A stretch of 64,000 bases of DNA from Escherichia phage vB_EcoM_Skers. The translations under genes and the position numbers were made by a program. Under the pieces are notes generated by a model. That model was not told the DNA's origin. It made no database searches and saw nothing but the letters and a program-made list of their open reading frames with translations. The stretch lies in sequence record MW748999.1; one strand, given 5' to 3'. Positions 3,141-13,013 of the stretch are shown piece by piece. Numbering within the stretch: position 1 is the first letter of the stretch; every line of letters starts with the position of its first letter.

Positions 3141-3658
3141 TGACAGAAACTAAACCTATGTTAAAATTTGTTGTTCCTGTAAAAAAATTAGAGATAAACG
3201 GGAAACATATTAAGATCCCAAAAATGGGGATTAAGCAACATCGATTATTAAAAGATGTTCGTAGCTGTGATGAAACATTAAAGATTCTTCTTGATTCAAT
3301 CTGTCCTGGGTTAAACGCTGCCGAGTCTGAATTGGTTATGCTTAACCTTTGTGCGTTTAATGGTAAGTGTCTGGAAGAAAAAGATGGTCTTAAGCTGTCT
3401 GATGTGTATATTTGTACAGAGACCGAATTTACTTTAAATGGTAAAGTCTTTAAATTTAAAAATCCAATGTATACTTCTGACCCCATTATCGATGACGCTG
3501 ATTTCTTGAGTCATCATTATCACGATCCTAGTGTAGACTTCCATGATTTCCCAGCTTTTATTATGGATTGGGCTACAGGATTAAGAAAAACTATTGCGCT
3601 GGATACGCCGGAAGGCACTATCTATGGTGGAATTAACATATTGGATCGCCTATCATGA
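3140..3658 (+). CDS. 28: Baseplate hub distal subunit gp28
   Basis: 172 aa (T4 gp28 is 177 aa); start overlaps gp27 stop; position. Confidence 0.75.
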   Translation: MTETKPMLKFVVPVKKLEINGKHIKIPKMGIKQHRLLKDVRSCDETLKILLDSICPGLNAAESELVMLNLCAFNGKCLEEKDGLKLSDVYICTETEFTLNGKVFKFKNPMYTSDPIIDDADFLSHHYHDPSVDFHDFPAFIMDWATGLRKTIALDTPEGTIYGGINILDRLS

Positions 3659-6446: not shown

Positions 6447-7378
6447 TGTTTGATTTAAATGACTTTAACGAACAAGCCGCTAACCTTGACTTTCAGCGAT
6501 CGAACTTATTCAGTGTGGCATTTGCCACCACTCCAAGTAATAAGACACAAGCGATCCTAGAAAGTATGGGCGGTGCGGTATATGATATTATACCAAATGC
6601 ATTAAATGACTATTTCGGGATTACTCGTGGTGATTATACTGACGCATTAACAAATCTTGCTGTACAGGGTGTTAGGCGTGCTGTTGATTCATCCGGTGTC
6701 AAAAAGTATCTTTTAGGTGCAATGTCATCCCGCGTAGTTCAATCTCTTCTGGGGCAATTTGATGTTGGTACATATGCGCTTGACTGGTTCAATATGGCAT
6801 ATAAGACAAGCGGTCTTCTGGTGTATGCTGTTAAGGTTCCAGAAAACAGATTGAATTATGAAATGGACCGTAACCACAATGCGCCGAACATTCGAATTAC
6901 CGGACGTGATTTTGATCCGCTTGTATTGAGCTTTAGAATGGACTCTAGCGCATCAAACTATAGAGCAATGCAGGATTGGGTTAACTCAGTAGAAGACCCC
7001 GTTACAGGGCTTCGTGCGCTTCCTGTTGACGTTGAAGCAGATATTCAGGTCAACTTACATAACCGAATGGGAGTTCCTCACACGATCATGATGTTTAATG
7101 GTTGTGTTCCTGTTGGTGTGAGTGCACCGGAATTAAACTATGAAAACAACAACGAAATCACAACATTCGATGTTACTTTCGCATATCGTTCTATGCAAAC
7201 TGGTGCTGTAGGAGAGCAAGCCGCGCGAGAATGGATTGAGGATAAGGCAATAAACGCAATAACAAACACTTTCGGCAATAATTTACTTGATAGTGGGTTA
7301 TCTGCTGCTGGTAATGCTTTATCGCGTCTAAATGGCGTTGGTGGGCGTGTGGTGAATACTGTCACTAACTGGTTCTGA
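6446..7378 (+). CDS. 54: Baseplate tail-tube initiator gp54
   Basis: 310 aa (T4 gp54 is 320 aa); overlap-coupled to gene 48; followed by terminator. Confidence 0.8.
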   Translation: MFDLNDFNEQAANLDFQRSNLFSVAFATTPSNKTQAILESMGGAVYDIIPNALNDYFGITRGDYTDALTNLAVQGVRRAVDSSGVKKYLLGAMSSRVVQSLLGQFDVGTYALDWFNMAYKTSGLLVYAVKVPENRLNYEMDRNHNAPNIRITGRDFDPLVLSFRMDSSASNYRAMQDWVNSVEDPVTGLRALPVDVEADIQVNLHNRMGVPHTIMMFNGCVPVGVSAPELNYENNNEITTFDVTFAYRSMQTGAVGEQAAREWIEDKAINAITNTFGNNLLDSGLSAAGNALSRLNGVGGRVVNTVTNWF

Positions 7379-7384
7379 TAAGCG

Positions 7385-7412
7385 AAAGGCGGGGATTATC
7401 CCCCGCCTTTTT
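7385..7412. terminator. Bidirectional intrinsic terminator between convergent genes 54 and lipoprotein gene
   Basis: Hairpin GGCGGGGattatCCCCCGCC flanked by A-run and T-run. Confidence 0.7.
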
Positions 7413-7899
7413 ATTTTGCTAAATCATTGCAATATTTTAGTGCCTTAGTTTGAAATTCTGCGCTGTTAAGTTCTTCATAACGGTCATAATCACCGTTTAA
7501 TGCTGCCTTTCTTGCTTCTTGCTCTATCTGCATGTCAGACATGATAATACAGCGATCCCGTGCTTTCATCTTCTCAAGTTGTATAGACTCTTCTTTCTGT
7601 TTGCGCAATTCTTCTTGACGCTTCTTTTCTTCTCGTGCTTTCTCTTCCCGCGCTTCTTTGATTGCATCCTTGAACATCTGCGTTTGTGGTGCTAAACCAA
7701 CTTTAACGCGATCCACGTCTCGACGTTCCATTTTAGAAATAAAGCATGATTCGATCTGACCATCACTTGCATATGCTGCTTTACATTCACGAAGCAAGAA
7801 AACCGGATCTGATTTAGCCTTCATCATAGCTTCCATGTTAGCACAACCATTAAGCATAGCCACTAAAGCCGCAAGACCAATTAGTTTAATCATTTTCAT
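7411..7899 (-). CDS. Putative lipoprotein with Lys/Glu-rich coiled-coil
   Basis: N-terminal signal peptide with lipobox-like LNGC; KEAREEKAREEKKRQEELRK low-complexity helix. Confidence 0.55.
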   Translation of the reverse strand: MKMIKLIGLAALVAMLNGCANMEAMMKAKSDPVFLLRECKAAYASDGQIESCFISKMERRDVDRVKVGLAPQTQMFKDAIKEAREEKAREEKKRQEELRKQKEESIQLEKMKARDRCIIMSDMQIEQEARKAALNGDYDRYEELNSAEFQTKALKYCNDLAK

Positions 7900-8720
7900 T
7901 TAGTCACCTCACCGAAAATTGTAAATTGTCTACGATTCTCATCGCCGAAAGATTCTACTACGTCGTTTACCTTGACGCAAGTCCCGCGCGGTAAAATTAC
8001 TTCACATTCGCAAGGATTCCATGCAATCGACCCAACAACAAAACCTTTATGATCTTTTACGTCAATTACCCATGATACATTACAAGAATGTTGCATCTTT
8101 CCGGTCATCGATTCATATCGATTCTCACAATAAAGGCTAGTGCTATTTGAAAGCCAGCCTCCAAAGATGATTGGTGTCATGCTGGTTGATACAAAGTTTT
8201 TAAAGGTAAATTCCTTATCTTCAATAATACGCTCTATTGTTTGAATGTCAAGATGTTGACCACGATAAAGAGTACCGTTTAACTTTTCGGTTTTATCCAT
8301 GACGCAATCCATCAAATCAACAATTTCGGATATCTCGTCGGTCATGTCTTCTTCCCCTAAGAGAGCACCATTTACCCATTCGTATTGTTCAGACACATAA
8401 TCACAGATTGCATTATATTCTGCTGGGGTTATGTTGTTATGTTTGTAATGTTTGAATACATTATCTCCAAAATCTTCGGAGTGTACTTCATACATCACAT
8501 TAATGATTTTCTTGATAAATCCATAATCTTGTGTCTCACGCTCAAGGAAGCGGATAACCTTCACATAATCATCAAAGTTAATCTGATCACTGATCATCTC
8601 AGTGATCATGTAACCATTAATCCCCTCAATGTCATATGTTTCGATGTAATTATCCATACGTTCCATCATTGATTCGCGTGATTCTTCTGAAAGACGAAAA
8701 TCCTGTAATTTCTTGAACAT
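7896..8720 (-). CDS. Alt/Mod-family ADP-ribosyltransferase (small paralog)
   Basis: R-S-ExE catalytic triad: LYRGQ, FVSTSMT, ECEVILPRG; homologous to C-terminal domain of adjacent Alt. Confidence 0.8.
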   Translation of the reverse strand: MFKKLQDFRLSEESRESMMERMDNYIETYDIEGINGYMITEMISDQINFDDYVKVIRFLERETQDYGFIKKIINVMYEVHSEDFGDNVFKHYKHNNITPAEYNAICDYVSEQYEWVNGALLGEEDMTDEISEIVDLMDCVMDKTEKLNGTLYRGQHLDIQTIERIIEDKEFTFKNFVSTSMTPIIFGGWLSNSTSLYCENRYESMTGKMQHSCNVSWVIDVKDHKGFVVGSIAWNPCECEVILPRGTCVKVNDVVESFGDENRRQFTIFGEVTK

Positions 8721-8738
8721 TTTAAACCTCCCATATAA

Positions 8739-8773
8739 CAGAAAACGGGGCTAGTATAAAACTAGTCCCCGTT
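8739..8773 (-). terminator. Hairpin terminator downstream of alt
   Basis: Stem ACGGGGCTAGT/ACTAGTCCCCGT followed by T-rich tract on minus strand. Confidence 0.5.
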
Positions 8774-8797
8774 TGAGTCAACCATTATTTCTTAAAA

Positions 8798-10849
8798 TTA
8801 CATTTTAAATTTATCTGGCATTGCGTCTACAGATACCAGATCAGCGATAAGCTGACGTAGAGTTGCCTTATCTGCTTTCTTACGTTCGGTTTTAGCTTCG
8901 GTAATAAAGCTGGAGAAAGACAGGTCAGAAGCAGGTTTAATAACACCTTCACGGATGAATGCATCACCGTCAGCGATCATCTCGCCAGATTCTTGTAATG
9001 CTGCCAGTTCATTTTTGTTCATAATATGTGCCTCAATGTAATAAGTTTCTTGTGAATCCGTCGATGCCGTAGCACGAGTTACCGTATCAAAGGATAGCAC
9101 AACACCGCGAGGAAGTAAAATCTCGCATTCTTTGTAAGCAAATGCTTTGTTACCTACTGGCAATACAGGGATGTTTTCCGCGCCAGCAATGGAGAAAGCA
9201 ACATTAGCGCCACCTTCACCGCGAGAGCCAGCCATAGAATCAACACCAGCAACGGCACTAGCCACGTTTGCATTCCAGCCGCCAAAAATGTTAGGTGCAA
9301 GGGAAGTGCTCACATAGTTTTTAAAGTAAAACGCTTTTTGCTTACGTGCAGTTTCCCACATTTGCGAACGGAAGTCCATACCACGATACAGAATAGTACC
9401 CGGATCAAGTTTAACGCCATAGTTAGAGAAGGCATTATCCAGTGCATCGCACATCTTGACCAATTCTTCTGGATCTGCGATGCCGTCAAACTCTTCCAGC
9501 TTACGGTCGGTTAGGAAGTTGTTCATATTGATGTATGCTGCATCGGCATATTCGCTCAACACAAAACCTTCCGCGCCCGGCAGATCAAGATCAATATCTG
9601 CCATCATTTCACCCATGTTGCTAGCAATTGCTTCAAACATACCGGAAGCAACATTACGTAGGGCATCGGTTTTAATCTGTGTGATGTGACTACGCAACAT
9701 TTCAGCTTTTACATCTGCTGGCATAGACTGGTCTACTCGATCCATTGCTATGGCAGTGATCTTGTTTTCGAATACGTCCTCGCTCATGATTTCTTTTAAG
9801 CGTTTGATTGATGCTGCGATAACTTCCGCAGACAACGGATCATATTGATCCTGAACTTTTACCAGTTCGCTTACTGCGTATTTTGCATCGGCTTCGCTTT
9901 CAAAAATAGTACGCATGAAACCATAGCGAGTGATAATATCACTTGTCCAGTCATTCAGAGAACGAGCGGTTGAACGTTCTAAGGCTTGACGATCAATCAG
10001 AGTATTAAACTGTTTCTTAGGTTCTGCTTCGGTGATATCTTCTTCCGGTTTAAGATTAATTTTTTCTGGATGATTCACATAGTCGCTGTTATAGGTCGCT
10101 TGAGTTTTCAGCATTTCTTCTTTAGTCAAACGAGATTTAGCCGCTACGCGTTGTTCTGCTTCCGCGTTTCGTTCTTCTTCTGACACAAGACTAGCCGCAT
10201 ATGCCTCATCTTTAGTCAGAGATTCACCAGTAGCCTTAGATACCCAGCGATCACCTAAATCACTTTCTACTTTAGTGAACAAGGATTCATCAAGTTTAAT
10301 CCCTTTAATCTTATCAATCGCCATCCCGCGACGCTTGACAACAACTAAAGCGATCTTTTTGCTGGTCATTACTTCCTGCTGGAATACTTCAAACTTCGGT
10401 GTACGACGCACCAAACGCTCTATAACGCGCTTAACCAGTTCGGTCTTACCCTTCATACGGGATACGTTAAAACGGAACATAACAGCGTCTAATTGCGCTT
10501 TACGGGCTGTTTCCATAACCACATCAAAAGCACTTGCCATAACTGCAATCGGGTTATCGCCTAGACCATTTTTAAGCTGTACAATACGACCGCTTTTGTT
10601 CATTTCGCACAGTACAACATGTGCGGTCTTGTCACCCATACGAATGATTTTAGGTGTTTTGTTGGTGAAGTTACAAAGACGGACAATCACATCTTTATCG
10701 CGTGTCTGTACTGCAAAAAGCTGTTTAGGATTCTGCTTAGGCTTTAAGCACTGTACCGGAGCAATACTGCCAAAGTTTTCTTCCTCTTCCGTCAACAGCC
10801 ATTTCTCGAAAGATTCAATCATTAGATCGTCGATTTCTAAGTTAAACAT
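8798..10849 (-). CDS. alt: Alt ADP-ribosyltransferase (packaged RNA polymerase modifier)
   Basis: 683 aa (T4 Alt is 682 aa); C-terminal LYRGMD, YVSTSLAPNIFGG, ECEILLPRG triad. Confidence 0.9.
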   Translation of the reverse strand: MFNLEIDDLMIESFEKWLLTEEEENFGSIAPVQCLKPKQNPKQLFAVQTRDKDVIVRLCNFTNKTPKIIRMGDKTAHVVLCEMNKSGRIVQLKNGLGDNPIAVMASAFDVVMETARKAQLDAVMFRFNVSRMKGKTELVKRVIERLVRRTPKFEVFQQEVMTSKKIALVVVKRRGMAIDKIKGIKLDESLFTKVESDLGDRWVSKATGESLTKDEAYAASLVSEEERNAEAEQRVAAKSRLTKEEMLKTQATYNSDYVNHPEKINLKPEEDITEAEPKKQFNTLIDRQALERSTARSLNDWTSDIITRYGFMRTIFESEADAKYAVSELVKVQDQYDPLSAEVIAASIKRLKEIMSEDVFENKITAIAMDRVDQSMPADVKAEMLRSHITQIKTDALRNVASGMFEAIASNMGEMMADIDLDLPGAEGFVLSEYADAAYINMNNFLTDRKLEEFDGIADPEELVKMCDALDNAFSNYGVKLDPGTILYRGMDFRSQMWETARKQKAFYFKNYVSTSLAPNIFGGWNANVASAVAGVDSMAGSRGEGGANVAFSIAGAENIPVLPVGNKAFAYKECEILLPRGVVLSFDTVTRATASTDSQETYYIEAHIMNKNELAALQESGEMIADGDAFIREGVIKPASDLSFSSFITEAKTERKKADKATLRQLIADLVSVDAMPDKFKM

Positions 10850-10888
10850 TTTATATCCTCTAGTTGATAACCTATAAACCTATATTTA

Positions 10889-10911
10889 TGAAAAAGGGGC
10901 TTAACGCCCCA
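10889..10911 (-). terminator. Hairpin terminator
   Basis: GGGGCttaacGCCCC followed by TTTTT on minus strand, just downstream of 10916..11128. Confidence 0.5.
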
Positions 10912-10915
10912 TTTA

Positions 10916-11128
10916 TTATAATGCACCATCGAGCAATTGCTCTAAGGTGTATCCTGAATAGTCTTTTTCAATCAGGATATATTTTCCTACTCGTTTAATA
11001 CAACCACGCATTTCAACGTATTCTGCGTAGTTGATGGTACGAGTTGTTCCATCTTCCAGTAATGCAGTACCGATTTCGTTAATGCGGTCATAAGTTACGT
11101 CGGTAATGATGATTTCGATGTTAGCCAT
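10916..11128 (-). CDS. Hypothetical protein (70 aa)
   Basis: ORF with SD AAGGAG and PeSL promoter upstream. Confidence 0.6.
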   Translation of the reverse strand: MANIEIIITDVTYDRINEIGTALLEDGTTRTINYAEYVEMRGCIKRVGKYILIEKDYSGYTLEQLLDGAL

Positions 11129-11164
11129 TTGATACTCCTTAGTAGTTCGTTTCGGTATGGGTGT

Positions 11165-11193
11165 ATTATGATATACACCCTCTGTTATGTCAA
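11165..11193 (-). promoter_or_regulatory. PeSL-type early promoter cassette
   Basis: Minus strand TTGACA-N17-CATAAT; palindrome GGGTGTAT/ATACACCC spans the -10; followed by SD and ATG. Confidence 0.7.
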
Positions 11194-11199
11194 CAACTT

Positions 11200-11379
11200 T
11201 TAGAACATTTTTGAAATTAATTCTGCTTTGATTTCGCAGAGAACATCTAAAGATTTCTCGTCACCTGCTTTTGCGGCTTCTGCTTGCATTTTTGAAATGG
11301 CTTCAATGTCAGTGCAATTATAAGCCGCTTGAACTTTAGCGATTGCGATGATTGCCGATTCGATGGTTAAGTGTTTCAT
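11200..11379 (-). CDS. Hypothetical small protein (59 aa), not in ORF track
   Basis: ATG at 11377-11379 with SD GGAGAATCAAAC; PeSL promoter upstream; translation MKHLTIESAIIAIAK.... Confidence 0.45.
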   Translation of the reverse strand: MKHLTIESAIIAIAKVQAAYNCTDIEAISKMQAEAAKAGDEKSLDVLCEIKAELISKMF

Positions 11380-11447: not shown

Positions 11448-11966
11448 TTAGTTATTTTTTAATTGCTCATCTTGCAATAGGGCAATCACATGCTGGCGAT
11501 GCTCTTCCGATTGAGGCACACCGAAAAAGTTTGTTTTGTAGAAATACTCTAATCGGTCTTCTCGTGTGCTCTCTTCCATCATGATCGCTGGTAGTCCGAG
11601 ATTTCGGAAACGTCGCTTTTCTGCTGGAGTAAAATCACTGTAATACAACATAGAATCATCATTACCAGCAATGCTAAACTCATCCTTCATAAAGGAGAAT
11701 ATTGCGTTTAAACGCTGTTTACCGTCCACGATTTCGATCTCATAGCGAGAGCCATCATCAATCTTAGCCATTGCGATAGCACCAACCGGAAAATCATTAA
11801 TAAGGTTTTCGATAAACATACGTTTGTTTTCTGTGTCCCATACTAAAGGACGCTGATAATCTGGGTTCATGTTGATATAGCCATCTTCTAACCATGCATC
11901 ATAAACAGAGATGACAAAGTTTTTAGTATTGGTATAGTAACGGCGTTTAGGCGTTAAACGGTTCAT
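11448..11966 (-). CDS. DUF262 (ParB-like / GmrS N-domain-like) protein
   Basis: DGKQRL (DGQQR-type) motif and PDYQRPLVW; start trimmed to ATG 11966 with SD AGGAG; last gene of five-gene operon. Confidence 0.6.
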   Translation of the reverse strand: MNRLTPKRRYYTNTKNFVISVYDAWLEDGYINMNPDYQRPLVWDTENKRMFIENLINDFPVGAIAMAKIDDGSRYEIEIVDGKQRLNAIFSFMKDEFSIAGNDDSMLYYSDFTPAEKRRFRNLGLPAIMMEESTREDRLEYFYKTNFFGVPQSEEHRQHVIALLQDEQLKNN

Positions 11967-11967
11967 G

Positions 11968-12300
11968 TTATAGTCTCCTGAATGGATCATCACGTAAATC
12001 AATATCTTTTAAGAACTCCTCCCATGAATGGCGGATATTGTTCTTAATTCTCCAGATAAGAGCAGGGATTGAACGCTCTCCCATCTGGAAGTATGGATCA
12101 TATGATCCATATGCCCAATATGCTACTACAATTCCACAATCAGCGCAATAATATTCTATTTCACTTGCTGGCGACCAAAGTCCATCAATATGATCGGTGA
12201 TCTTGCTTTCGATGTTATGGCTATGACAATCAGGGCAACGGATGCAATGACCTTGTTTATCGTAATTTGACGTTAGAGAATACTTAAACAATCTCATCAT
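11968..12300 (-). CDS. Zinc-ribbon protein (110 aa)
   Basis: CIRCPDCHSH ... YYCADCG (CxxC ... CxxC); ATGA overlap with upstream gene. Confidence 0.6.
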   Translation of the reverse strand: MMRLFKYSLTSNYDKQGHCIRCPDCHSHNIESKITDHIDGLWSPASEIEYYCADCGIVVAYWAYGSYDPYFQMGERSIPALIWRIKNNIRHSWEEFLKDIDLRDDPFRRL

Positions 12301-13013
12301 AGATCCTTATTTGCTTCAAATACTGCCTTTGCGAATCCTCGCGGGGTAAGTGACCTTATAGTCTTTGTTTTCGTTCCTTTCCCGCCTAGCTTAGAATGCT
12401 GTTTACTGTACCCTTTATTAATCTGCAAAGGTTTCTTTTCTGGCATTATAAAGCCTTGTCCGGTCCATAAGCAAGTCTTTTTCGGGTACATATCACGGGC
12501 GGCAATATACTCAGGAAACGTAGGATGCTTATCATCTTCCGGCAAATAACCGCCATATTCCCACGGATGGAACATATAATCAGGCTTACGCCACATGCTA
12601 GAGATAACGCTTACAGGATTCTCTATCATGTAGGGAACTCCTAGCCATTCACCCAAATACGCGGTTATTTTGGCTGCCCTTACATCATGAACTTGAATCA
12701 ATGGTCCTTGTTCTCGTTTCTTTCGTTCAAAGTGCGCAGCGCCACTAACAGCTAAATTGGTGCACGGTGGGAATGCAAAGATAATATCCGGTTTCCCCCA
12801 TTCAAGGTCCATTGCTCTTTCCAGCCAGTTCAAATCAATCCAGGTGTTTACATAGGTAATGTTTGGATGTTCAAATCGGGTATTATACTTTTTGTATGTG
12901 CCGTGGTCGGCGTCATCCGCATTAAAGCAGACTACCTTATGACCTGCTTTAGCCCATTCTAGCCCCATTATCCCCGATCCGTCAAAGTTGCAGAATATTA
13001 ATTTTTGTTTCAT
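12297..13013 (-). CDS. Minimal C5-cytosine methyltransferase-fold protein (no target recognition domain)
   Basis: Motif I FDGSGIMG (FxGxG), motif IV FPPCTNLAVSG (PC catalytic Cys), motif VI ENP (ENV-like), C-terminal RSLTPRGFAKAV (R.LTPRE-like). Confidence 0.6.
   Translation of the reverse strand: MKQKLIFCNFDGSGIMGLEWAKAGHKVVCFNADDADHGTYKKYNTRFEHPNITYVNTWIDLNWLERAMDLEWGKPDIIFAFPPCTNLAVSGAAHFERKKREQGPLIQVHDVRAAKITAYLGEWLGVPYMIENPVSVISSMWRKPDYMFHPWEYGGYLPEDDKHPTFPEYIAARDMYPKKTCLWTGQGFIMPEKKPLQINKGYSKQHSKLGGKGTKTKTIRSLTPRGFAKAVFEANKDL

Follow-up and report, generated by a model that had tools for sequence, protein, structure and literature searches.

A tandem pair of Alt-family ADP-ribosyltransferase genes in a Krischvirus and a predicted early promoter embedded in the hairpin between them

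The window analysed here, a 64,000-nt stretch of a Krischvirus (RB49-like, T4-like coliphage; record MW748999.1), carries a full-length alt gene and, directly downstream, a smaller gene that encodes only the catalytic module of an Alt-type ADP-ribosyltransferase (ART). We favour, with moderate confidence, a model in which Alt is made late and packaged, and the small ART is made early from a promoter in the intergenic spacer and stays unpackaged. Finding the pair is a correct rediscovery and reveals no new kind of system: the paralog has been annotated and published, and was noticed in RB49 some 20 years ago. The RB49 record describes the gene, ORF183c, as 'similar to C-terminal part of T4 Alt protein', and Nolan et al. 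2006 treated it as a paralogous duplication of alt (PMC1524935); the pair had therefore already been described. RefSeq and PHROG 15144 name it ADP-ribosyltransferase. RB49 ORF183c (NP_891754) and its orthologs in phi1, JSE, GEC-3S and further Krischvirus phages are the same gene in the same position with the same neighbours (99.6% amino acid identity), without substantive difference. Our analysis adds its conservation and selection, its fold, the age of the paralog, the composite nature of the spacer, the late-like signals of alt and a census of the ARTs.

A full-length Alt and its catalytic-module paralog

The alt gene (8798..10849, minus strand) encodes a 683-aa Alt-type ART. The protein has the full-length Alt architecture: a Tevenvirinae_ADPRT region at the N terminus, the catalytic ADPrib_exo_Tox domain (residues ~425-610) and ~80 aa of C-terminal tail. 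In a profile search, residues 16-683 matched PHROG 802 (Alt) with E=1.9e-179. Pfam PF03496 (ADPrib_exo_Tox) scored 37 bits against a gathering cut-off of 23.4, and P0095, a cluster representative 99% identical to this Alt, carries PF26846 and PF03496. The protein is an ortholog of T4 Alt (NP_049811; phmmer E=9e-59), to which it aligns over the full length; both genes adjoin gene 54 and have a terminator upstream. The dN/dS of alt was 0.01-0.13.

The small ART gene (RB49 ORF183c or RB49p183; 7896..8720, minus strand) encodes 274 aa. It matched PF03496 more strongly than Alt did (59.4 bits, E=4e-16, cut-off 23.4) and PHROG 15144 at 274/274 positions (E=5.5e-198). Given that its match to PHROG 802 covers only profile positions 330-602 of 674, the protein corresponds to the catalytic module of Alt with a helical lead-in. 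The first-pass annotation had called it the catalytic domain only, and this description was accurate; the last ~80 residues of Alt are missing too. PF03496 is its sole Pfam domain in the precomputed annotation, the PF26846 N-region and the C-tail being absent. Because the profile match is partial and PF03496 stands alone, we regard the small ART as derived from Alt but architecturally not an Alt: compared with T4 Alt, it is without residues ~1-330 (the PF26846 region) and the last ~80 aa.

An alignment of the two proteins, in line with the comparison of catalytic domains suggested in the first-pass annotation as a check, gave 37% identity over 109 aa (E=1e-16), and the triads are aligned. The small ART and T4 Alt were 31% identical over 181 aa (E=1e-23), with R, STS and ExE in common. 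The catalytic residues of the small ART are R153 (LYRG), S178-T-S180 (VSTS) and E238-x-E240 (ECE), and the LYRG, VSTS and ECE motifs of Alt aligned with those of T4 Alt. The R, S-T-S and E-x-E columns occur in that order and are invariant across the orthologs and T4 Alt. The claim of a tandem Alt-family pair with intact triads thus holds, with both open reading frames in place and PF03496 above its cut-off in each. The motif 'ECE(V/I)L' is right as to ECE and approximate as an exact string, which reads KECEILLPRG in Alt and CECEVILPRG in the small ART.

An AF2 model of the small ART had a pLDDT of 88.8 and a pTM of 0.86. Foldseek searches with this model returned Vis, C3bot, iota Ia, CDTa and Certhrax (E ~1e-10, probability 1.00, target-normalised TM ~0.6). 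An ART fold, with a helical lead-in and a split beta-sandwich, is confidently predicted. The C3/Vis/iota-Ia/CDTa/VIP2 toxins share the fold, the motif order and PF03496 with the small ART, but they are only 13-20% identical to it, and the phage proteins have the infected bacterium, rather than a eukaryotic cell, as their site of action. The ExE motif of R-S-E ARTs is classically associated with the modification of arginine in proteins. We infer activity, arginine specificity and targets for both phage proteins, which would be two functional mono-ADP-ribosyltransferases of the arginine type (R-S-ExE) within the T4 Alt/VIP2 family.

Conservation, selection and age of the small ART

The small ART was full-length in 58/58 Krischvirus records, at 96.7-99.6% amino acid identity, and the copy in the window differs from most records by one residue. 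Its dN/dS was 0.015-0.13, with dS up to 0.27. More distant orthologs have 271-288 aa and 42-83% identity; R, STS and ExE are invariant among them, as are the YxxxxxxxxN and FGGW motifs down to 42% identity. The gene is no pseudogene and is under purifying selection, which disposes of the degradation in related genomes that the first-pass annotation had named as evidence against its own reading.

In T4 (alt.-1/alt.-2) and Aeromonas phage 44RR (ORF187c/ORF188c), too, alt has been duplicated in tandem, with the copies placed between alt and gene 54 (T4 record notes; PMC1524935). 44RR ORF187c is unlike the small ART in being a full-length alt copy, and the T4 genes are broken remnants of the first part of alt, of 61 and 67 aa. 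Since degraded remnants occupy this very position in T4 (PMC1524935), the small ORF could be imagined as a catalytically dead relic of an alt duplication, kept only to serve as spacer, decoy or regulatory protein. The invariant R, STS, ExE, YxxxxxxxxN and FGGW, the low dN/dS in an ORF that is full-length in every Krischvirus genome and the confident prediction of an ART fold make such a relic very improbable.

The age of the duplication was judged from a tree. The small ART was sister to Krischvirus Alt in 0/200 bootstraps, and its clade is deep and long diverged from all full-length Alts, T4 Alt included. Over the domain, the small ART was 30% identical to the neighbouring Alt and 33% identical to T4 Alt. 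By this phylogeny, the small ART is an old paralog and not a recent copy of the adjoining alt. Divergent metagenomic relatives share the gene order: alt, the small ART and an ORF of about 160 aa, convergent with gp54.

In the window, this third ORF (7411..7899, minus strand) encodes 162 aa with a signal peptide and an LNGC lipobox and is the last gene of the block. Its ATG overlaps the stop codon of the small ART (ATGA). It matches PHROG 16112 (unknown function) and is annotated as 'putative lipoprotein' in phage W115. A homolog was found at the equivalent position in all divergent relatives, and the one in relative L012 retains the lipobox at 38% identity. A bidirectional terminator (7384..7411; 11-bp stem with 7 GC pairs) separates the alt block from the convergent gene 54; it is annotated on both strands in GEC-3S and listed by TransTerm as '54-><-RB49ORF182c'.

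The ATGA coupling and the co-conservation of both ORFs in every lineage also fit a different view, in which the small ART and the coupled lipoprotein form an accessory cassette. Its job would be unlike the RNA-polymerase/host-takeover role of Alt and could be counter-defence or the use of a non-protein substrate (NAD-capped-RNA transfer). All three block genes change rapidly (38-46% identity, vs 81-82% for neighbouring tail genes), a signature of an arms race, and the long divergence of the small-ART clade from all full-length Alts points the same way. There are precedents as well: AcrIF11 is reportedly an ART that inactivates a host immunity protein, and ModB is said to have been shown recently to attach RNA to proteins (RNAylation). 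However, the classical role of ExE is arginine-protein modification, a lipoprotein directed to the periplasm or membrane has no obvious link to a cytoplasmic ART, and gene coupling is commonplace in T4-type early operons. We consider the accessory cassette doubtful.

Transcription signals upstream of alt and in the spacer

A late-promoter-like CATAAATA (10883..10890, minus strand) precedes the start codon of alt by 33 nt. Its core, ATAAATA, is depleted in the window (5 copies vs 23 +/- 4.6 expected), and 5/5 copies lie 20-43 nt upstream of a long ORF. In relative L012, AATAAATA takes the position equivalent to that of CATAAATA. The alt site has C instead of T at -13, a position that is reported to vary in RB49 (PMC1524935), and Nolan et al. 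listed no late promoter upstream of RB49 alt. Upstream of this site is an intrinsic terminator (10896..10910, minus strand), composed of GGGGCGUUAAGCCCC and UUUUU, that would insulate alt from the upstream early genes. It is annotated in GEC-3S and predicted by TransTerm in RB49 at 114488-114504, and among 7 genomes its stem is invariant and its loop variable. Judged from these signals, alt looks like a late gene with a candidate gp55-type promoter.

The spacer between alt and the small ART (77 nt; 8721..8797, minus strand) is a predicted composite promoter-terminator, or 'PeSL', of the subclass whose stem-loop overlaps the -10 box. The first-pass annotation had reported a hairpin between the genes, which we recovered as a terminator-like structure at 8740..8773 (minus strand), AACGGGG(A)CUAGU - UUUAU - ACUAGCCCCGUU, then a U-run; the overlapping sigma70-type promoter had gone unmentioned. 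The hairpin has 12 bp with one bulge, is followed by UUUUCUGUU and folded with -20.9 kcal/mol (z=-2.4). The predicted early promoter (8753..8781, minus strand) consists of a -35 TTGACT (8776-8781), a 17-nt spacing and a -10 TATACT (8753-8758), matches the consensus at 10/12 positions and precedes the start codon of the small ART by 32 nt. Promoter sites of the same class numbered 20 in the window vs 1.4 expected, all on the minus strand, which is the early-gene strand. The GEC-3S record, HE978309, annotates the embedded promoter, and the early-promoter HMM of Nolan et al. picked it up in RB49 as Pe:112388 with a score of 9.3, vs 19-39 at neighbouring sites.

With an AT-rich stretch upstream and GGGAGG (8727-8732) as its Shine-Dalgarno, the spacer shows the PeSL layout, that is, an intergenic sigma70 promoter, AT-rich sequence upstream, an overlapping stem-loop with G/C tracts and then SD and ATG. 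The class was defined and tested in Arbiol et al. 2010 (PMC2839356), where promoter and terminator activity is shown only for RB49/phi1 PeSL193/192, 206/205 and 211/210. The alt/small-ART spacer has all the parts of the RB49/phi1 PeSLs (Arbiol et al. 2010; Comeau et al. 2014). It is a predicted PeSL that the accessible text on the class does not name, and it keeps a fixed position across divergent lineages, in contrast to the ORFan-shuffling PeSLs.

We compared the spacer among relatives. In 7 Krischvirus genomes it was invariant except for one T of a T-run, at a neighbouring dS of 0.1-0.27. The element is conserved in 4 further lineages, with compensatory changes in the stem, although the proteins there are just 44-48% identical. 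The 5 lineages have identical -35 and -10 boxes at an identical spacing but vary in the flanking spacer sequence, which is hard to explain at such protein divergence other than by promoter function. Over the 12 pairs of the hairpin, 98.3% of cells were paired, vs 32-52% with the partners slid. Both variable pairs (2/2) had changed on both sides in this comparison of 5 sequences, in which 15/500 shuffles reached the covariation score and 105/500 the count of both-side changes. These compensatory changes suggest that the hairpin is under selection as a structure. Since the -10 hexamer sits in the loop and the 3' arm, RNA started at the embedded promoter would lack the 5' arm. With a conserved compensatory hairpin and an embedded early-class promoter, the separate regulation of the small paralog proposed in the first-pass annotation is plausible.

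The same spacer leaves room for late expression. Its -10 reads TATACT, and its U-run (UUUUCUGUU) is interrupted; termination may therefore be leaky and allow late read-through. The small ART could then be late like Alt, its mRNA coming mainly from polymerase that passes the hairpin (or from a promoter that is internal or late), and the protein could be packaged or act late; the sigma70-like site would be weak or irrelevant. The neighbour immediately upstream of the small ART gene, on the same strand, is a probable late gene, the early-promoter score of Nolan et al. is low, and these authors listed a late promoter within ORF183c. According to Iyer et al. (PMC9503650), packaging is the general inference for phage ARTs in the genomic context of T4 alt. 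However, we sought a TATAAATA-like core inside the small ART (ORF183c) and did not find one, and the window scan detected no ATAAATA core upstream of or inside the gene. The promoter elements kept at 44-48% protein identity and the compensated hairpin likewise argue against late expression, as does the absence of both terminal regions, which carry the gp21-processed propeptides in T4 Alt. We consider a late small ART unlikely.

The ART trio and a model for its use

T4 Alt, ModA and ModB are the textbook case of a phage that reprograms host transcription and translation by ADP-ribosylation. Krischvirus, like T4, has three ARTs in total: Alt, the small ART and one ModB-like gene. The last is RB49p014, found at the T4 position and 33% identical to ModB (E=8e-11). 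As this gene is the Mod homolog of RB49, the small ART is no Mod ortholog. BLASTP between the small ART and ModA/ModB gave E 0.4 or worse, and phmmer gave no match at E<=1. The parallel with ModA/ModB drawn in the first-pass annotation therefore survives for timing only. All are small R-S-E ARTs (200-274 aa), and early sigma70-driven expression is probably common to them, but the Mod genes lie at a different locus and show no detectable sequence similarity to the small ART.

In T4, alt is late, its product is packaged at about 40 copies and processed by gp21 at both termini, and ModA and ModB are early (PMC9697503, PMC9026906). By analogy, the 683-aa Alt is most likely packaged and injected. 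According to our preferred model, the upstream terminator would shield alt from early transcription, and the candidate gp55-type promoter would transcribe it. Alt would enter the prohead core via its non-catalytic N- and C-terminal regions and be injected with the DNA. The spacer hairpin would end the alt transcripts, and host sigma70 would start RNA inside the hairpin; this RNA, missing the 5' arm, would read through and cover the 274-aa ART together with the lipoprotein-like ORF that is coupled to it in translation. The small ART has an early-type promoter where T4 Alt has a late one. As it is the Alt catalytic module only, it is most likely made early and left unpackaged, although that the missing N- and C-terminal regions by themselves prevent packaging is only plausible. 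Made de novo early in infection, it would provide a second, differently timed Alt-type activity beside the single ModB-like enzyme.

A broader proposal, which we put forward as speculative and rather improbable as a whole, is that Krischvirus rebuilt the three-ART programme of T4 by another route. One Mod gene would be complemented by an ancient Alt-derived module whose early promoter, set in the terminator of alt, supplies the missing early, unpackaged ART. Since it has diverged from every full-length Alt, this ART could have distinct, even non-canonical, substrates, such as NAD-capped RNA or a host defence protein, and the coupled lipoprotein would belong to the same module.

RB49-type phages are common therapy candidates. 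Their ART trio differs from that of T4 in consisting of Alt, a short enzyme derived from Alt and a single ModB-like enzyme, and the short enzyme is easy to express. If the small ART is indeed an early and unpackaged ART of the Alt type, it would offer a natural experiment on the ways in which timing and route of delivery, apart from the catalytic scaffold, shape the targets of an ART.

The alt and small ART genes

The region at 7000-11200 shared 98% DNA identity with 58 phage records, all T4-type coliphages of the RB49-like genus Krischvirus, among them RB49, phi1, JSE and GEC-3S. On the plus strand, gp48 and gp54 converge with three minus-strand genes, namely a 162-aa ORF (7411-7899(-)), a 274-aa ORF for a small ADP-ribosyltransferase (ART; 7896-8720(-)) and the 683-aa alt (8798-10849(-)), beyond which lie small early ORFs. 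An ORF check returned both ART genes with exactly the boundaries of the first-pass annotation.

We assigned both proteins to the family by several searches. First, both scored over the gathering cut-off of Pfam ADPrib_exo_Tox. In addition, the 683-aa protein matched PHROG 802 ('Alt-like RNA polymerase ADP-ribosyltransferase') over its full length (E=1.9e-179), and the 274-aa protein matched PHROG 15144 ('ADP-ribosyltransferase', E=5.5e-198). A search of a 5.8-billion-protein index with full-length Alt gave at least two matches. On the Alt profile, which has 674 positions, the small ART also aligned to 330-602; it is the catalytic module only, as had been proposed from the sequence, and lacks ~330 aa at the N terminus of Alt (the PF26846 region) and ~80 aa at its C terminus. 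Finally, aligning the two catalytic domains gave 37% identity across the core (E=1e-16). The triad described in the first-pass annotation was intact in both, with LYRG (Arg), VSTS (Ser-Thr-Ser) and ECE (Glu-x-Glu) aligned with T4 Alt.

The AlphaFold2 model of the small ART was confident (pLDDT 88.8, pTM 0.86), even though the alignment behind it had 10 rows. This predicted structure matched Vis, C3, iota-Ia, CDTa and Certhrax (Foldseek probability 1.00). No solved structure of a close relative was found, the best sequence matches being Tre1, SpvB and Vis at E>0.06. In R-S-E ARTs the ExE motif, unlike the QxE of C3, indicates arginine specificity. The ExE motif of the small ART therefore suggests that it modifies arginine. 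Both proteins would be active ARTs, and the small one may have targets of its own.

The pair is already present in the literature and in RefSeq annotation, and the small ART is an ordinary, uncharacterised member of a known family. The RB49 record describes RB49p183, the same gene, as 'similar to C-terminal part of T4 Alt protein'. Paralogous duplications of an adjacent alt were listed by Nolan et al. 2006 (PMC1524935): RB49ORF183c, 44RR ORF188c, T4 alt.-1/alt.-2 and, in full length, 44RR ORF187c; the T4 record likewise describes alt.-1/alt.-2 as alt duplications. The supplement of Nolan et al. placed a predicted early promoter, Pe:112388, between alt and ORF183c, where the authors of the GEC-3S record also annotated a promoter.

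Two other neighbours were recorded. Of the GmrSD-type restriction enzymes, the 184-aa protein at 11448-12002(-) matches just the N-terminal domain, DUF262/GmrSD_N (E=6e-20; positions 9-183 of 417 in PHROG 1583), and it is curious that a phage would carry such an apparent half of a Type IV restriction enzyme. Two genes away, the ORF at 12297-13013(-) is annotated as a DNA methyltransferase in the RB49 RefSeq record.

Ancestry and conservation of the small ART

A phmmer census of RB49 (1-118 kb) and the window found three ART genes only: Alt, the small ART and a ModB-like gene. The last (RB49 8917-9420, 167 aa, with LYRG and E-R-E motifs) follows srd as in T4, with 33% identity to ModB (E=8e-11) and 23% to ModA. 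Since Krischvirus has this one Mod gene, nearer to ModB than to ModA, the T4 modA/modB tandem is not universal among T4-like coliphages. The small ART had no detectable similarity to ModA/ModB. We also considered whether it replaces missing Mod genes and rejected the idea as stated, because a ModB-like gene occupies the T4-syntenic site in RB49 and only ModA is without a counterpart.

A recent local duplication of the neighbouring alt was likewise rejected. A domain tree was built from 63 Alt-like sequences (neighbor joining, 200 bootstraps); its 173 columns otherwise give little resolution of the deep branches. The small-ART clade had 67% and the Krischvirus-type Alt clade 71% bootstrap support, and the two clades were sisters in 0/200 bootstraps. 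The small ART catalytic domain was 30% identical to that of the neighbouring Alt vs 33% to T4 Alt. Given that the clades were never sisters and identity to the neighbour was no higher, either the duplication is old or the copy was acquired.

A degraded pseudogene in related genomes would have spoken against a functional small paralog. Instead, tblastn found the gene full-length in 58/58 Krischvirus records, at 96.7-99.6% amino acid identity. Among seven genomes, pairwise dN/dS ranged over 0.015-0.13 in the small gene and 0.01-0.13 in alt, and dS reached 0.27. Orthologs of 271-288 aa with 42-83% identity were found in protein sets of 5.8 billion and 1.84 billion sequences; R153, S178-T-S180 and E238/E240 were invariant in these orthologs. 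Their contigs keep the arrangement of alt, small ART and a ~160-aa ORF, convergent with gp54. Against a divergent relative (L012), gp48 and gp54 were 81-82% identical, whereas Alt, the small ART and the 162-aa ORF were only 46%, 44% and 38% identical, a pattern typical of host-interaction genes.

The 162-aa ORF has a lipoprotein signal (MKMIKLIGLAALVAMLNGC...) and a central part that is rich in Lys/Glu and highly charged. Its ATG overlaps the stop codon of the small ART (ATGA). In every divergent relative, a homolog lies 3' of the small ART gene (38% identity) and retains the lipobox. It belongs to PHROG 16112, a family of unassigned role, and no similarity to the position-matched T4 alt.-3 was detected. 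A near-consensus sigma70-like site (TTGACA-16-TATTAT, 11/12) at 8251-8224(-), within the small ART coding sequence and ~325 nt upstream of this ORF, may be due to chance or be an internal promoter for it.

The promoter-hairpin element in the spacer

On the minus strand, the 77-nt spacer between alt and the small ART (8721-8797(-)) reads ...AATAATGG TTGACT caaacggggactagttt TATACT agccccgttttctg...GGGAGG...ATG. Folding confirmed the hairpin seen earlier, with 12 bp, one bulge and a U-run (-20.9 kcal/mol, z=-2.4). The -10 hexamer sits within the hairpin loop and 3' arm; thus, RNA begun at the spacer promoter cannot form the hairpin, while RNA coming from alt can. The early-promoter pattern TTGAC[AT]-N16-18-TA[TCA]A[ACT]T occurred 20 times in the window vs 1.4 expected, always on the minus, early-gene strand (20/20) and in the majority of cases ~30-40 nt upstream of an ORF. 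The spacer promoter belongs to a genuine promoter class, and this strand-pure signal could be used to map the early transcription units of the phage.

Across seven Krischvirus genomes the element was invariant except for one T in the T-run, and adjacent synonymous sites differed by 10-27%. Four further lineages, with small ARTs 44-62% identical, retained the -35, the 17-nt spacing, the -10, the G4/C4 stem and the U-run. Both variable stem pairs changed on both sides (one C-G/A-U/U-A, the other U-A/C-G), and hairpin pairing held in 98.3% of cells vs 32-52% with partners slid. The covariation comes from five sequences and its statistics are modest, 15/500 shuffles attaining the observed score. 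In Shigella phage JK32, the small ART gene opens with a 9-nt tandem duplication, ATGTTCAAA (3292-3300), which gives three more residues (MFK) if translation starts from the upstream ATG; promoter and hairpin are unaltered.

By its sequence, this architecture is that of the PeSL (promoter-early stem-loop) published for RB49/phi1, and it falls in the subclass with a stem-loop overlapping the -10 box. Other RB49/phi1 PeSLs showed strong promoter and rrnB-T1-like terminator activity by experiment (PMC2839356). Five further early promoters in the window (54305-54277, 18226-18198, 17088-17060, 13572-13544 and 11440-11412, all minus strand) carry a near-identical palindrome, GGGGATCnnnGATCCCC or GGGGAGnnnnCTCCCC, which exactly spans the 17-nt spacer from TTGACA to TATA(A/C)T. 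They are classic RB49-type PeSL cassettes, each followed 31-40 nt downstream by a small ORF (51-83 codons).

Predicted expression of the two ARTs

Upstream of alt, an intrinsic terminator (10896-10910) is followed by a late-promoter-like CATAAATA, 33 nt before the ATG. The late core ATAAATA was ~4.6-fold depleted in the window on both strands (5 copies vs 23 +/- 4.6 expected), and 5/5 copies preceded long ORFs by 20-43 nt, which suggests that the heptamer is reserved for promoters. L012 carries AATAAATA at the matching place, and -13 is variable among RB49 late promoters (Nolan et al., PMC1524935). The same authors did not list a late-promoter-like site upstream of alt (PMC1524935). From these elements Alt looks late. 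T4 alt belongs to the late genes and ModA/ModB to the early proteins (PMC9697503); the T4 prohead core contains ~40 Alt copies, trimmed at both termini by gp21 (PMC9026906). Literature searches on Krischvirus virion proteomics or transcriptomics gave nothing usable.

We propose that Alt would be shielded from early transcription and, once made late in infection, packaged and injected; alt transcripts would end at the PeSL hairpin. From the sigma70 promoter embedded there, a short, unpackaged Alt-type ART would be synthesized early, with the lipoprotein-like protein co-produced by translational coupling at the ATGA overlap. The main rival is that the small ART is expressed late, by read-through from alt. 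The HMM score of the spacer promoter is weak (9.3; Nolan et al., Pe:112388) and the hairpin U-run is interrupted, both of which favor read-through. Late expression also agrees with the top-scoring RB49 late promoter of Nolan et al. 2006 (PMC1524935), Pl:112065 (score 15.9), placed inside ORF183c. However, this call was not reproduced: the corresponding region (window ~8426-8468(-), RB49 112023-112065) had no TATAAATA-like core in RB49 or the window, with 5/8 matches at the expected register. An ATAAATA-type core was absent upstream of the small ART.

Separate regulation of the small gene, suggested in the first-pass annotation, gains support from the conserved promoter and hairpin; timing, packaging status, activity and targets we infer. 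Overall, the original observation was confirmed and its hedged interpretation supported. What is added here to a known gene pair is evidence that the small ART copy is old, constrained and separately wired.
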